Origin: a virus
DNA length: 64,000 nucleotides
Strand: one strand, 5' to 3'
IMG/VR virus record: IMGVR_UViG_3300025132_000023
Location: 1 to 64,000 of that record
The notes beneath the pieces are model-generated. The model ran no database searches. It saw only the letters and a list, made by a program, of their open reading frames with translations, and was not told the DNA's origin. The translations under genes and the position numbers were made by a program. This document shows, one piece after another, positions 47,898-63,807 of this stretch; the stretch's first letter is position 1, and each line of letters opens with the position of its first letter.

Positions 47898-48239
47898 CTA
47901 ATAATATGTTTCTGCTTGTCTTCTACCTTTGCGCGGCTGTGAACAAGCGGGGGCAGTTTTACTTCCTTTTTCTTCTACACAAATAGACCAAGATTGTTGA
48001 TTCCATTCTTGATATTCTTTAATATTTTGTCCACGCCTTCCTATGATTAACCCTGCTGCGCCGGGTTTTGTTATTATTCTTATCTTTTTCATCATTCTAT
48101 CTACAGTTATGCTAATTAGGTGTTTTGCCATCTTCTTTCTCTCAAAGAAACTCCACAAATTACTCCTAATCCTTTTATCTCCTGAAGGCCTATTTGACCT
48201 TGGACTTCTTGTTTTTAATAATTCAAACCATTCTTCCAT
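47898..48239 (-). CDS. KH-domain RNA-binding protein with W-tag
   Basis: IRIITKPGAAGLIIGRRGQNIKE carries the KH GxxG loop; starts MEEWFELLKT. Confidence 0.7.
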   Translation of the reverse strand: MEEWFELLKTRSPRSNRPSGDKRIRSNLWSFFERKKMAKHLISITVDRMMKKIRIITKPGAAGLIIGRRGQNIKEYQEWNQQSWSICVEEKGSKTAPACSQPRKGRRQAETYY

Positions 48240-56176: not shown

Positions 56177-56679
56177 AATACTCCTCCTAATTGTCGCCCG
56201 GTTTAACTTATTTAACCATTAAAACTGAAAATTTGGCCCGTCATTTATTTGCCACTTGCGATTTTTCTTTTGCTCTTTTTATCCTATTCCCAGAATAAAA
56301 ATAGTTTATTGTTTATTTAACTAGATAAAAACGTATTAATCTCTTGTATCTCTTTACGCGACCCGCGATTTATTAATAGTTAATTATGCACCTTTACCTT
56401 TAGTGCGCTCTCTCTATATGACCCATGTGCGCCTACTATTTAGAATGTGACTTGACACAATTAACATTTTAAGCCTGTTATAACTAAACAAATCATTAGA
56501 ATATTAAAAGAAAAAAATCGACCCAAAGCATATGGTCATGTAAAATACATAGACCCGTCAGGAACTTCTTCCAACAACGATAGTCGTATTCAGCGTTCAA
56601 TGGAGCATAATAGTGATAGCACTTATTATTGGCCTCATTCTCTGAATACTCATCGTTTGTTTACATCGTTCCATATGGT

Positions 56680-57616
56680 TGTCTATTAGGACGTATTACG
56701 GTATTACAAGGAGTAAACGCCAGCACTTGCGCGGTGTTAATAGAACTCTATTCATAAATAGAGCCTAAGCGGTAGTTCGTAGTTAACACAGCGGCAGGGT
56801 GCTTGGTCGTTTACTTCCTTGTAATACCCAAATGTCCATATAAGACATTGCCCGATAAATGGGGATATATGCCGTTACACTAACATGAAATGTATTCACT
56901 CCGTTGCATTGGAGAGCAAGAGTAAATTCCGGGACGTTTAGACTCTTGCTTTAGCAATCCCTGCACATTACTCTGCTCTCCAATCCTCTACGTTTACATA
57001 CATTTCATTACACTACCATATGGTTACTTAGTCATGGAGTAAGGCAAGAATGTGCGTATTCAGTCAGGCTCCTAAGAGTCTGAGTCTAAATGTGGTGAAT
57101 ACCGCATTCTTGCCTTACTCCGAGCAAGATAATCCCATATCGGGTTCTTTTGATTTATGGTCTGTCTCAAACAGTTCAGATGCTAATCATAAACTTTTAG
57201 CAGAGACAGTACCGCTTAGGCTGAGTCTTACGACTCCCTTATGCACGCTAACTACCTCCGGCTGTTATCGTACCGCTAAAAGATTATGTTAACATCATCA
57301 CAACTCACCAGACCTTTTCTTTTTTAATTAACAACCATATGGTTTAGTAAGTGGTTGGTTTAAGGCGGGAACCTATGTAGAATGTTAAACACGGCTGTTC
57401 TTAAGAACGAGCCTAAGCGGTAGTGTTGGAAATTCTACCGGGTTCCTCGCCTTAAGCACAACCCTACATAACCAGACATCGGGTAACATTCGGTTAATCC
57501 CAACATTCACTCCGTAGTATCTCCTGAACGGAACCTGTATTGACATTTAGATTAACGCTTAAGCGTTCATACTTGGTTCCCTTCAGGTTATCTCACTTCG
57601 TTCATTTAACCTCACT
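56680..57616. repeat. Three double-hairpin non-coding units (U1-U3)
   Basis: Long imperfect stems, e.g. GGTATTACAAGG 56700/CCTTGTAATACC 56817 and GGAGTAAGGCAAGAATG/CATTCTTGCCTTACTCC at about 57036-57121, each with the conserved loop motif. Confidence 0.85.
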
Positions 57617-57664
57617 ACCATATGGTAGGCTGTGCTTTGCTAACAGAATGCCCGATAACGGGAC

Positions 57665-57907
57665 TTACTTCATTGTTACGATTTTACAGCAATTACCCAT
57701 TTTTACTCTTAAATCGCCTAATTCCATTCCGCAGTTATTACATATCTCAATCATTATTTTTACATCCATTAAACCAGCACCAATAGAACGAGGAATCACA
57801 TTCTTTACAATCAGGAGGGAGAGTATCTCTCATTCCTCTCCCCCCTTTTTACCAATAGCATATATTCTACAAAACTCTGCATGAGCCTTTAACAAGTTCC
57901 AACTCAT
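57665..57907 (-). CDS. Three coupled micro-ORFs (57830-57907, 25 aa; 57747-57833, 28 aa; 57665-57754, 29 aa)
   Basis: MSWNLLKAHAEFCRIYAIGKKGGEE; MRDTLPPDCKECDSSFYWCWFNGCKNND; MIEICNNCGMELGDLRVKMGNCCKIVTMK; each start overlaps the previous stop. Confidence 0.55.
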
Positions 57908-58626
57908 TCTTCTTCCCCCATTACAAGTTTAGTTGTTTCTGGGGAGCATTGATATGAAGCCTCACTAATTATCTTCGTTTCGCAATCAACAGTATGTGTT
58001 ACTTCACAAGCACTTAATTCTGTAAGGGTACTTTCTACTGCCTTGCGTATTCTTAGCATCTCTGCCAATGGGACTTGAACAACTCTATCTTCTACTGCCT
58101 TTCTATCTGTTATTGACTCCACTTCATAAGTAATCCAAAAGGTTAGAGTGTAGGTATGACCGTAATTATCAAGTCTTGTTAACAAAGTTACGTTATCGTC
58201 ATATTTCAGCATGGCTCTACCATAAAAGGACTGTGTGCCATTAGTAGGCCCAAAGTAAATACCTAGATATGGGCCTCTTACGCGCATCCACTTATCCATA
58301 GTCTTTGTAGTCTGAACTACGGCTACATCAGTATTAATACCATAGTCTGTCAATCCCTTCTGTGCTAGTCTTGCTTGACTACTGTAATCTAACTCCATAA
58401 GGACTTGACCGTTTTCATCAGTTACTGCATAAGTAGTGGTTGTATCGTCCGTTGATTGAAAGCCGTATAATCTAGCATCATCCTCAGGATTATCATAGTT
58501 ATAGTTACTAGTCTGTGCTATGCCTCTATCATACAACATACTCTGCACCTTATTAGGGTGAAAGTTGACTTCTGACATATCTGTATCAAAGACTATTTCC
58601 ATTTTTCTCTCATAGATAGTCATCAT
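57904..58626 (-). CDS. Hypothetical protein (cassette 1)
   Basis: 240-aa ORF; AGGTGA RBS; ATGA overlap with the upstream gene. Confidence 0.7.
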   Translation of the reverse strand: MMTIYERKMEIVFDTDMSEVNFHPNKVQSMLYDRGIAQTSNYNYDNPEDDARLYGFQSTDDTTTTYAVTDENGQVLMELDYSSQARLAQKGLTDYGINTDVAVVQTTKTMDKWMRVRGPYLGIYFGPTNGTQSFYGRAMLKYDDNVTLLTRLDNYGHTYTLTFWITYEVESITDRKAVEDRVVQVPLAEMLRIRKAVESTLTELSACEVTHTVDCETKIISEASYQCSPETTKLVMGEEE

Positions 58627-58826
58627 TCATCACCTATCGCTTCAACGTAGTCTGATAGTGCAGATTGCATATCAGCCATTACTTCCTTTAGGTTATCACC
58701 AGATACTCGTAGTTTGCTAATACATAGAACAAGGGCAGACCCCGATTTCATATGCTTAACTTCTAGCACGTATTTTGGCTCAGTTATTGGTATTGTTTCA
58801 TTATTCTCGTTCATCATTTGAATCAT
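58623..58826 (-). CDS. Small hypothetical protein, probably leaderless (cassette 1)
   Basis: The track start (58880) lies inside the palindrome; ATG 58826 is about 25 nt downstream of the TGATATAT box. Confidence 0.55.
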   Translation of the reverse strand: MIQMMNENNETIPITEPKYVLEVKHMKSGSALVLCISKLRVSGDNLKEVMADMQSALSDYVEAIGDE

Positions 58827-58885
58827 TCTTATGTTGGGAGATGAATATATCAGGTGAGTGTTAGCAAAGCACACTACCATATGGT
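58824..58885 (-). promoter_or_regulatory. Cassette promoter: ACCATATGGT-n-CTTTG-n-CACCTGATATATTCA-n-CATAAGAATG
   Basis: Nearly the same element recurs at about 59979-60041; variants at about 59540-59586 (-) and 61173-61212 (+). Confidence 0.6.
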
Positions 58886-58931
58886 TTGCTTTGCGTTAAA
58901 CCGGAGAGGTGGAGAGGGGCGCAAAACCCAC

Positions 58932-59471
58932 CTATTCCTCCTCATCGCCTCCGATGAAGGATACCACAGGATAACCGTTCTCATCATAAGAACCATCCCA
59001 ATGGTATTTCTTTGACATATCTCCGTTTGCGTGTGCATTGAATGCCGCATTAAGGAACAATCGCTCCTTCTTCACGCCATCCTTAGCAAAGACAGTTTCA
59101 CCGTCTGTTAGGGTGTTGTAAAGAACTCCACCCGACTTACCGTGGGTTCTTGCCGTAGCATAAACCGCAGGATAAACCACATCGCGTAGGCTGATGTAAA
59201 GCGTATCATTAAGGTAAAGGTCGAAGGAAGACTTCGTTGCCGTATCCATAAGGGACTTTCGGCCCTGTCCAATGGGCGAATTTGCCACATCGGTGAATAC
59301 ACCTACAATGCTGTTCCAATATCTCTTACGAGTGCTTGGGTTAGCATCACCGAGAGCGAACATTGAACGCACAATCATTGCCAAATCGCTTTGGTCTGGA
59401 TTAACTGCGAACCACTCTTCAAGGTCAGTTTTCTTTGTTTCCCACTTGCTGTCATCTATTTCATTACTCAT
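58932..59471 (-). CDS. HGKS-motif protein, paralog A (cassette 2)
   Basis: 179 aa; aligns by eye with 61278-61787 (W..K, GD.N.STR...NSI, R.HGKS.G, WDGS). Confidence 0.75.
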   Translation of the reverse strand: MSNEIDDSKWETKKTDLEEWFAVNPDQSDLAMIVRSMFALGDANPSTRKRYWNSIVGVFTDVANSPIGQGRKSLMDTATKSSFDLYLNDTLYISLRDVVYPAVYATARTHGKSGGVLYNTLTDGETVFAKDGVKKERLFLNAAFNAHANGDMSKKYHWDGSYDENGYPVVSFIGGDEEE

Positions 59472-59601
59472 GTTATCAATCTCCGAAAAGGTTTGATAGG
59501 TTTGCGCCCCTAAAATTCCTCTCCATTATTATAATTCGGTATGAACATATGAGGTGTGTTTAATACAAAGTAACACACCATATGGTTTTACTTTGTGTCA
59601 A

Positions 59602-59981
59602 AAACCAGACGGGAGAATTGCTCAGATTTAAACATGGGCTAAACTACCGTGATTCCATGTCTGAGGCTTACGATTCTCCGCTAAGAGTCTGAATGGGTTT
59701 TGTTTCGTGCTTTCCTAAGGCACTCTCAGACCCGACTGAGCAAATGAAGTGGATATTGGACTCTCTTTCGATTACCAATAAAGACGCATGGGCGTTAGTT
59801 CTACATATCTTTGAGTATACAGTTCTAACCCGCGCTTACCCCGTATTACCCCGCTAAGGGTGTTGTCCTGCCTTTCCTTTGTAAGAACGACTCGGTGGCC
59901 CGCTAAGGCCCAATACGGTTGCTTTACACCCTAACGATGGTGTTATTCAGCCAATCCGTGGTGACTCGCGAAGGTCACCAT
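59602..59981 (-). ncRNA. Putative ~380-nt structured non-coding RNA (cassette 3)
   Basis: Lies behind the same promoter as cassette 1; only a 12-codon ORF follows the ATG; many GC-rich hairpins, three capped by an identical UUAGCG loop. Confidence 0.55.
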
Positions 59982-60041
59982 TCTTATGATTAAGGGTGAA
60001 TATATCAGGTGCAATTGACACAAAGTATCACACCATATGGT

Positions 60042-60950
60042 TTAGTAAGTATGCAAGTTAAACTTGCAAAGGGAGGGAGTTAAACTCAGGTGTAAGGGCC
60101 AAAGGCCTAATCTAAATGTTGCCTGAGTGGACTCCTCAGTTTGCAAGTTTAACGCCAGCATCTACATAACCAGATTTGAAAATCTGGTACTGGGTTATCT
60201 TGCATCGGCTAAAGGTAGACTATGAGCAGCACGAACACTAAGGCTCGTATTCTTAGGAACACGCCTTGCTGCTACTATTCTACCTTTAGACGCTGACTAA
60301 GTAACCTTAATACCATATGGTAGTAGAAAGGTCTTTTTAGTATATTGGTGCTATAAGAATAATATATATGTGAGTTCAAACTCAAGCCTAAGCGTTCATA
60401 TAAATTATTGTAGTTGCGTGCAACTGCCCTCTTATAGTGCGAATCTAATAAAAAGCATATAGAAGTCATCTTTTTACGCAGTAAAACGGGGCTTATTTTT
60501 GTAGGCTTTCAAGACCCCAATTTTCTCTGGTATGGTTATCTTGCTCCGAAGTGTATTCTGTTACTTGCAGCAACCACACTCAGGCTCGTAATCTTAGGAC
60601 TACGACTTGCTGCAATTAACAGCATACACTCCGTTGACTAAGTAACCTAATACCATATGGTTTGATAAAGTGGTTTGCGTTTAGACGCTAGTTTACAGAC
60701 GCAAAATCTACGGTCTGGTTTAGTAACAAGAGGTCACCAAAGTGACAATCTAAATGTCTCGCCAGTTAATCAACCAGAGCGTAGAGTTTGGGGCTTAAAG
60801 TAGCGTCTAAACGCATAACCCATATCATTCCCGATAAATAGGGTATGTATTCCACATAGCGAAAGCCGAAGGAGATAAACCTATGAACACTTAGGTTCTT
60901 GTTATGACAAGCCCTATGTTCACCTCCTTCAACCTCGCAGTTCCATCATT
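60042..60950. repeat. Three double-hairpin non-coding units (U4-U6)
   Basis: e.g. GTTAAACTTGCAAA/TTTGCAAGTTTAAC, TGCGTTTAGACGCTA/TAGCGTCTAAACGCA, GGTTATCTTGC...TGACTAAGTAACC (twice), with the same loop motif. Confidence 0.85.
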
Positions 60951-61277
60951 ACCATATGGTAGTATAATTAGAATTAGATGGGTTAATCGTATCTGTTAAA
61001 GTGTAGGATTCGGAACCCGTCCCTTGTGAATCGAATTAGCGGTCACCCGTGACCCCTGACCATTTTTCTTATTTCTCGTTTTTCCAAAACGCGATAATAA
61101 CCTTAACATCCTCGCAGAAAACGGCTTGTTTTTCCTTCTCGGCCTTTCAGACCCCTGAAAAACGCTATCATTACCATATGGTTCTGCTTTGCACGGAACC
61201 TCTTATATATCCGATGACTGTCCCAAGAATGCCCCCGAAACTTGGGCGCGAAAGAAAATACACATAGGTGATAAAAG

Positions 61278-61787
61278 ATGGAAGATATTGAGTGGGATTC
61301 AGTAAAGATAAAAGTAAGCACTATGCTTGAAGGTAACGCGGAAGTTGGAGACATTCCAGAAGACGTTGTTACTCTAGCACAGATGCTAATAACGACTGGT
61401 GACAATAACGCTTCAACGCGTGATTCGTTGACCAACAGCATTAAGGATATGCTAAAGCCCTACGCGGGTTATCCTTGGAAGAGAGGCAATCAGGGCATTC
61501 TACCTGCCGCAGCACGCGCAGTAGTGGATTCAGCAACTGATAACATCCGAGAGGCAGCAAGAGAGTTCTTTAACTCTACTTCGCAGTATTCTCAGCCCCT
61601 TCTACGAAAGCACGGAAAGAGCAAGGGTTCCCCTGTTTACTCCGATGCTGACGAGTATGCAAACGAACTTGCTTCAAAGGCTCGTAAGGCTGCAACACAA
61701 CTCTTCAAGGATGGAGAGTGGGATGGTTCGCTATCCGGTCTTGCTGCTTGTGCGGCTTATGACGACATAACCACGGAGGATGAGTAA
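61278..61787 (+). CDS. HGKS-motif protein, paralog B (cassette 4)
   Basis: 169 aa; AGGTGAT RBS; TTATATAT box near 61203. Confidence 0.8.
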   Translation: MEDIEWDSVKIKVSTMLEGNAEVGDIPEDVVTLAQMLITTGDNNASTRDSLTNSIKDMLKPYAGYPWKRGNQGILPAAARAVVDSATDNIREAAREFFNSTSQYSQPLLRKHGKSKGSPVYSDADEYANELASKARKAATQLFKDGEWDGSLSGLAACAAYDDITTEDE

Positions 61788-62124
61788 TTCTTCCTTCGTT
61801 AACCTAAGTTTCGGGGTGCAACTACCGGAGGGGGGAATAGGGCTTAAAGGCCTTATTTCCCTCTCCACTTCTTTCAGGTTTTTGCTGGAAGCAAAGCCCA
61901 GATAAAACCATATGGTAGTGTTTGGCTTCTTAACGGAGGGGGGCCGCGAGGGGTTCCGCACCGTTTATATGTTCTCACGAAAGGGTATGATTGCTTTCGG
62001 CATTAGCGTTCTATTAACGCAGAAAGAACCTAATCTGATAATTCCAGTATATGAAAGGACTCAGATTTATGGTGTAAAAAGTTACTGCCGTTAAAGAGTG
62101 GGGAAATTAATAGTGGACAATGAG

Positions 62125-63720: not shown

Positions 63721-63807
63721 TGCGGGATTCCCAAGTATGGTCAAAGGGGCCGGACTTAAGATTCGGTGCGTAGTGCTTCGGGGGTTCAAATCCCCCTCCC
63801 GCAACCA
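63721..63807 (+). tRNA. tRNA-Leu(TAA) with encoded CCA
   Basis: Acceptor TGCGGGA/TCCCGCA, D-arm with GG, anticodon loop CTTAAGA, long variable arm, T-arm GGGGG-TTCAAAT-CCCCC, ACCA end. Confidence 0.9.

Follow-up and report, generated by a model that had tools for sequence, protein, structure and literature searches.

Strand-polar hairpin arms with a conserved double-hairpin tip lie between palindromes in an archaeal tailed virus genome

Introduction

Why does a viral genome carry, at a single locus, twelve long hairpins whose stems have no sequence in common and whose tips all display the same 11-nucleotide motif? The locus lies at 56.7–60.9 kb of IMG/VR virus record IMGVR_UViG_3300025132_000023, a 96,167-bp ocean virus genome rated 100% complete, of which the first 64 kb form the window analysed here. 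An earlier note on the window, made from its letters, had reported six two-armed units with the motif once per strand, and had taken them for protein-recognition, nicking or priming sites displayed on folded single-stranded DNA or RNA. Our results show the folding of the arms, the anatomy of their tip, the covariation of its pairs, the polarity of the arms relative to the palindromes that bound the units, and the modular exchange of arms between strains. As to function, we favour, giving it about an even chance, a model in which the arms, modules that strains exchange, are small non-coding hairpin RNAs that are transcribed divergently from palindrome-linked promoters and whose tip is a docking site.

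Results

Twelve arms between palindromes

The units are bounded by an exact palindrome of 8–10 bp, CCATATGG (PAL), which occurs 12 times in the 96-kb genome, always inside 56671–61915; ACCATATGGT has 11 occurrences against 0.06 expected. Each of the six units is exactly one PAL-to-PAL interval of 280–345 bp and consists of two convergent long hairpins, the arms, with a small palindromic hairpin in the centre. All 12 reported copies of the 11-mer were located with position and strand as claimed, on the + strand in left arms and on the − strand in right arms. Across the window the pattern ARYCTNARYGK occurs 17 times against 4.0 expected, and 13 of these occurrences fall within 56.7–60.9 kb.

Unit 1 runs from the PAL at 56671–56678 to that at 57016–57023 and holds arm U1L (56700–56828, +; 11-mer AGCCTAAGCGG at 56762–56772; z −8.4 against shuffled controls) and arm U1R (56885–57008, −; AGTCTAAACGT at 56934–56944; z −6.7), on either side of the palindromic centre hairpin CCCGATAAATGGGG (56851–56864), a degenerate PAL-like joint when read directly. 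Unit 2 follows with U2L (57036–57121, +; AGTCTAAATGT at 57083–57093; z −8.8), a centre hairpin CCCATATCGGG at 57134–57144 that is succeeded by a T-run on the + strand, and U2R (57165–57312, −; AGCCTAAGCGG at 57212–57222; z −2.5), and ends at the PAL at 57335–57342. Unit 3, with U3L (57347–57467, +; AGCCTAAGCGG at 57410–57420; z −7.9) and U3R (57516–57593, −; AATCTAAATGT at 57543–57553; z −4.7), is closed by the PAL at 57618–57625. The second block opens with the PAL at 60033–60040, whose other side is occupied by the promoter of a manA-like RNA. Unit 4 contains U4L (60048–60163, +; AATCTAAATGT at 60109–60119; z −6.8), the centre hairpin CCAGATTTGAAAATCTGG (60170–60187) and U4R (60193–60306, −; AGCCTTAGTGT at 60235–60245; z −6.0). 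Beyond the PAL at 60313–60320, unit 5 comprises U5L (60331–60456, +; AGCCTAAGCGT at 60385–60395; z −2.6) and U5R (60534–60647, −; AGCCTGAGTGT at 60576–60586; z −7.8). Between the PALs at 60653–60660 and 60952–60959, unit 6 comprises U6L (60676–60815, +; AATCTAAATGT at 60747–60757; z −9.0), the centre hairpin CCCGATAAATAGGG (60830–60843) and U6R (60859–60938, −; AACCTAAGTGT at 60887–60897; z −5.1). Read directly, the centre hairpins CCCGATAAATGGGG, CCCATATCGGG, CCAGATTTGAAAATCTGG and CCCGATAAATAGGG resemble degenerate PALs, and each arm can therefore be regarded as a cassette of its own.

The earlier note had staked its idea on the arms folding better than dinucleotide-shuffled controls. All 12 do so against 200 shuffles, ten with z ≤ −4.7, while U2R and U5L, at about −2.5, are weak. 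The stems, as had been described, share no common sequence, and among the matches listed the motif itself is the strongest match between arms.

A tip built of two small hairpins

At the tip of every arm the same order is found: the top of the long stem, 0–5 free bases, a hairpin (P2), the 11-mer A-R-Y-C-U-N-A-R-Y-G-K and the returning strand. P2 corresponds to the small variable stem-loop that had been noticed beside the motif. It is a hairpin of 4–7 bp immediately 5′ of the 11-mer in 12/12 arms, its sequence differs in each (in U1L, CTCTATT/AATAGAG), and CUAA or UUAA is the commonest form of its loop (12 of 26 arms). The 11-mer had been described as a loop motif. Its place at the arm tip stands, but it is not simply unpaired: across 26 arms, positions 2:9 (AU 10, GC 10, GU 6) and 3:8 (CG 16, UA 10) can pair in 52 of 52 cells. 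Shuffles give 81%, and none of 500 reaches the observed value. The pattern by which 11-mers were selected does not force this pairing: the window holds four chance matches at other places, and two of them fail to pair. The 11-mer thus forms a hairpin of its own, P3, in which 2 bp close a CUNA loop, and the tip carries P2 and P3 side by side. The C-U-N-A loop is present in 26/26 arms, partly through how the arms were selected, and fits the sequence Y-U-N-R. This form is typical of U-turn loops.

Scanning for P2, 11-mer and long stem together turned up 18 unique cases in the real sequence, and reversed controls over 679 kb gave 0. These cases are restricted to this virus and four related contigs (L014, L029, L022 and L005/L023). 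A single heptamer CUNARYG joining the 11-mer with the CTTAATG pentaloops of other magroviruses was considered and rejected, as the favoured strand there is the complement, C-AUUAA-G; at CTTAATG arm tips outside this clade the asymmetry is G-U 1 against A-C 14. The C-AUUAA-G tips of other magroviruses therefore match P2 and not the 11-mer.

Arrays of 90–200 bp PAL-to-PAL units without an open reading frame (ORF) occur in L008 (4586–7148), L015, L026–L028 and L059. Their units carry an AC-UAAGC-GU or GGC-UUAAU-GCC hairpin 8–45 nt from PAL (35 cases, none after an ORF of at least 90 aa) and a recurrent CACTTCGTT box; AC-UAAGC-GU hairpins are found in the small units of L008, L015 and L059.

The earlier note had further proposed that five of six units pair a C-type with a U-type variant of the motif. 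This is at chance level (192 of 792 arrangements by our count, P ~0.24).

Arm polarity points from palindrome to unit centre

That the motif sits at the tip of a folded single strand, with the strand alternating regularly, held up on closer measurement. In every arm of the window the motif strand is more stable than its complement, by 2.5–13 kcal/mol. The count of G-U against A-C appositions that had been suggested as a strand test favours the motif strand as well, with 66 G-U to 24 A-C in the long stems (29 to 10 in the window alone), and at tip pair 2:9 G-U is seen on the motif strand only (6/26). The same polarity emerges without reference to the motif. A motif-blind test covered 30 PAL-to-PAL units that fold strongly, drawn from many contigs: the left half favours the + strand in 28 and the right half the − strand in 27, with a mean stability gap of ~7 kcal/mol; orthologs are included, so that these are not 30 independent cases, and several distinct lineages agree. 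Left halves favouring + and right halves favouring − mean that, in each arm, the favoured strand has its 5′ end towards PAL and its 3′ end towards the unit centre. A polarity that flips every ~150 bp and diverges at each PAL fits divergent transcription units rather than replication forks. It also leaves without support the loop–loop contact once suggested between the two motifs of a unit, which needs both arms on one strand and is not beyond chance; the complementarity behind that suggestion is trivial, because CUAAG is nearly palindromic.

Arms are exchanged between strains as modules

Most of the locus is 97–100% identical to the L014/L033 contig, against which arm U2L is only 79% identical, U5L and U6R 90% and ORF179 89%; U4R is replaced there by an unrelated arm. 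Among strain differences seen in DNA sequencing runs, one strain has 147 other nucleotides in place of U4R and another is without unit 6. What passes from strain to strain is thus a whole arm, delimited by PAL and the centre hairpin. Comparison of orthologous arms shows 46 base pairs in which both sides have changed with pairing kept, and 26 with a change on one side. This covariation arises via exchange of diverged alleles and not by local mutation alone. The claim that structure rather than sequence is conserved is upheld.

Neighbouring cassettes and genomic setting

The remaining PAL-to-PAL intervals are taken up by two cassettes of small genes (1251 and 693 bp), a manA-like RNA (447 bp), a 214-bp unit without an ORF, and the cassette of ORF 61278–61787. 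A repeated cassette promoter precedes two ORFs and the manA-like RNA on the − strand (58829–58884, 59530–59585 and 59980–60040), and its + strand version (61174–61240) precedes ORF 61278–61787. It consists of PAL, ~25 nt that include ACTTTG/GCTTTG, a TATA-like box (CACCTGATATATTCA type, with variants GATATATT, CATATGTT or TTATATAT), and ~22 nt before the ATG or the first base of the manA match; the cassette transcripts look leaderless. An A/T-rich box abuts PAL on the side far from the arm when read directly, and in most left arms the stem starts 8–16 nt past PAL, ~24 nt from that box, apparently the same TATA-to-start distance as in the cassettes.

The manA-like structured RNA (59600–59980, −) matches Rfam RF01745 (46.4 bits, E 9e-10) without reaching the gathering score of 55.2. 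Its sense strand carries three hairpins capped CUUAGCG (59897–59910, 59848–59861 and 59676–59687), close to the CUAAGCG of the arms. One metatranscriptome contains contigs of this RNA (59742–59960) and of ORF 61278–61787; its contigs cover no arm, which is uninformative, as long inverted repeats interrupt assembly and a contig is evidence of presence only. Distant paralogy links ORF169 (61278–61787, +) to ORF179 (58932–59471, −), with 22% identity and E 2e-6. No family was returned for ORF169, ORF179 or ORF240 by sequence searches of Pfam, PHROGs and PDB, and all four cassette proteins have acidic C-terminal tails (EDE, DEEE, GEEE and GDE).

The L014 contig has the 214-bp unit (60960–61173) with 100% identity. 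Within the unit lie a GGTCACCCGTGACC hairpin and a stretch, AAAACGGCTTGTTTTTCC...CAGACCCCTGAAAAACG, similar to the centre of unit 5 (60470–60530). After ORF240, a spacer without an ORF (57626–57903) contains a strong hairpin GGGGGAGAGG...CTCTCCCTCC on the − strand and the PAL-like GCCCGATAACGGGAC.

The − strand carries the genes up to ~59.5 kb and the + strand those from ~61.2 kb onward, and the arm locus sits at this switch. Arm blocks flank the small-gene cassettes on both sides, separating them from the two large gene arms of the genome. In the GenBank phage set the major capsid protein has relatives only in archaeal tailed viruses (HVTV-1, HCTV-5 and a Methanofastidiosa virus), and the virus encodes a family B DNA polymerase, an archaeal-type ATP-dependent ligase and a ribonucleotide reductase. 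These genes are in keeping with an archaeal tailed virus; the virus is probably a magrovirus. The locus has no match in GenBank phage DNA. A search of cellular genomes with the PAL-pair pattern yielded 15 hits in unrelated bacteria and one in a Cenarchaeum metagenome-assembled genome, about as many as the ~17 expected by chance, with none in Poseidoniales. A tRNA-Leu(UAA) gene at 63721–63807 (+) lies a few kb from the PAL arrays, as in five related loci (L021, L022, L024, L026 and L030); L030 also has tRNA-Met and tRNA-Arg, together with a 174-nt Rfam tRNA match in which an intron may lie.

Discussion

A model of divergently transcribed hairpin RNAs

If the arms are small RNAs, host RNA polymerase would start a few bases past each PAL in both directions, with the A/T-rich box abutting PAL on the far side serving as the TATA box. 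Each start would yield a hairpin RNA of ~80–150 nt, ending near the unit-centre hairpin. The long stem would need only to pair and its sequence would be free, so that 12 copies could be kept dissimilar and recombination between arms avoided. The constant tip of P2 and P3 may then form a docking platform for one shared partner, either a protein or another RNA, and the arms may act early in infection as a multi-copy sponge or scaffold. Several observations argue for such RNAs: the motif strand folds better and its G-U appositions exceed A-C, the tip pairs tolerate G-U on that strand only, most left-arm stems start at what appears to be the TATA-to-start distance from the far-side box, the neighbouring cassettes are genuine PAL-linked transcription units, and the CUUAGCG loops of the manA-like RNA resemble the CUAAGCG of the arms. 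Divergent transcription in particular is suggested by a polarity that points away from each PAL and turns over every ~150 bp.

Were the arms RNAs, they would not belong to a known family. In searches with Rfam 15 at the gathering threshold the window gives the tRNA-Leu only and no family matches the arms; at relaxed E-values the arms match microRNA precursor models alone, by chance (E 0.06–9); and across the window and 12 related loci, with both settings, only tRNAs and the sub-threshold manA match outside the arms appear. Comparison with pistol, hammerhead, k-turn, T-loop, the Alu domain of the signal recognition particle and bulge-helix-bulge showed no defining core of any of these, in agreement with Rfam. 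As a candidate partner of the tip, a 113-aa ORF at 47898–48239 (−), beginning MEEWFELLK and containing a KH-type GXXG loop (IIGRRGQNI; KH_1, 18.6 bits, below the cut-off), is no more than a lead, as it does not co-occur with the arms: homologs are present in two arm-carrying contigs and absent from a 90%-complete third, and weak matches also occur in contigs where no such arms were found.

Several features weigh against an RNA function. The clear TATA box (CACCTGATATATTCA type) of the ORF and manA-like cassettes is seen in no arm, and oligo-T runs follow an arm in few units only. Oligo-T is the usual archaeal terminator, rather than hairpins. G-U makes up only 5.5% of Watson-Crick plus G-U pairs, so that the stems are almost purely Watson-Crick; this is low for a selected RNA and fits DNA inverted repeats or arm-to-arm conversion as well. 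The stems of U4R, U5R and U1R begin 5–6 nt from PAL and can pair into its half-site, and transcription of these arms would therefore have to start inside or before PAL. Strand-biased C-to-T mutation could also give the G-U excess without selection on RNA, which would still imply strand-specific exposure.

Some of these features are also what would be seen if the arms act as folded single-stranded DNA, with hairpins extruded from one strand to either side of PAL, either as recognition sites for cassette exchange at PAL or as lagging-strand priming sites at a bubble opening there. We regard this as possible and clearly less probable than RNA. The nearly perfect Watson-Crick stems, arm bases that can be read as pairing into the PAL half-site and the lack of a clear promoter or terminator at the arms all agree with it, as does the exchange of whole arms from PAL to centre hairpin on a 97–100% identical background. 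For a bubble opening at PAL, the favoured strand would on geometric grounds be the lagging-strand template, and plasmid RSF1010 offers a precedent in its paired priming sites ssiA and ssiB. However, PALs number 12 to 23 per genome, far too many for origins, and a double-strand break at PAL followed by resection would, by our reasoning, expose the strand opposite to the favoured one. The distance from tip to PAL varies from 50 to 100 nt, unlike in a composite recombination site, and a related loop sequence is present in a transcribed RNA. Searches of the viral genome also found no match to the Y1 (HUH) RAYT transposase (PF01797), to an IntI-type tyrosine recombinase (PF00589) or to a resolvase or invertase (PF00239).

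Two known systems of hairpin-forming elements are instructive in this respect. Integron attC sites resemble the arms as diverse imperfect inverted repeats of conserved structure that fold on one strand within a cassette array, and strand-specific folding of this kind is indeed found here. In integrons, though, sites have one orientation with one site per gene cassette and the tip is the variable part, whereas the arms alternate in strand, carry no gene and conserve the tip, and no integrase is encoded. We think it improbable that the arms are single-strand sites of an integron-like system shuffling PAL cassettes, with P2 and P3 as the handle and with no known recombinase family involved. REP elements and REPINs, which come with RAYT transposases, are likewise paired inverted hairpin-forming elements with a short conserved motif, and the earlier note had likened the units to them. 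Membership of that class is not supported: REPINs are many near-identical dispersed copies, whereas the arms are not repeated copies, the motif being the strongest match between stems among those listed, and all lie in the one locus at 56.7–60.9 kb of a genome without a Y1 transposase.

The arms might alternatively be passive stem-loops of empty regulatory cassettes, insulating neighbouring genes from two-way PAL promoters and having no function in trans. Such arms would correspond, in an archaeal virus, to the stem-loop half of the PeSL (promoter-early stem-loop) cassettes of T4-type phages. These cassettes combine a promoter with a stem-loop; they end transcription and allow modules to be shuffled (Arbiol et al. 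2010, PMC2839356). The locus resembles them in its short, putatively regulatory modules, in a repeated and probably promoter-linked signal with a stem-loop among small accessory genes, and in exchange at the repeated signal, single arms being exchanged at PAL and the centre hairpin. It differs in its archaeal host, in a signal that is an exact 8–10 bp palindrome, and in arms of 80–150 nt that form convergent pairs without a gene and share a conserved double-loop tip. The position of arm blocks on both sides of the small-gene cassettes, between these and the large gene arms, would suit insulation, as would a polarity directed away from PAL. A terminator, though, needs no conserved double-loop tip with covarying pairs, termination in archaea relies on oligo-T and not on hairpins, the gene cassettes of the window do not end in such arms, and 12 tandem stems of 40–60 bp far exceed what insulation needs. 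This explanation is, on balance, unlikely. Very unlikely indeed is that the arms work as double-stranded DNA or cruciforms, with a dimeric protein reading the CTNAG core or a four-way junction in partition or PAL promoter control, since the near-palindromic core of the 11-mer and the 12 copies of a perfect palindrome would suit it but the strand asymmetry in 28 and 27 of 30 units and the one-strand-only tolerance of G-U are left without reason, and the P2 stem sequences differ between arms.

Small hairpin RNAs, the model we prefer, have partial parallels in known regulators. The antisense RNAs CopA, RNA I and Sok use Y-U-N-R loops to present the following bases for fast pairing or binding, and the CUNA and YUAA loops of the arms share this sequence form; the arms differ in having, among the matches listed, no complementary target in the viral genome, where blastn-short of all arms listed no match stronger than 18 nt (E 0.03) besides the shared motif. 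Their signature is short and known from sequence alone. In overall form the arms recall the phi29 packaging RNA and adenovirus VA RNA, which are ~120–170 nt long with a long terminal helix formed from both ends and a branched functional tip. Those RNAs come from one or two genes and have known partners, whereas here there are 12 diverged copies and no Rfam match. The magrovirus literature that we searched does not mention repeats, hairpins or promoters, and the arm family, its tip and the polarity rule are likewise absent from it.

In the surface ocean few viruses are as abundant as magroviruses, and how they control infection is almost entirely obscure. If the arms act as DNA, they bear on how accessory genes are shuffled in these viruses. 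If they are RNAs, they would to our knowledge be the first structured non-coding RNA family defined for viruses of marine archaea, and their constant tip would be a ready bait for finding the partner. Multi-copy, strand-polar and placed beside expressed small-gene cassettes, the arm family provides a concrete target in existing marine RNA data.

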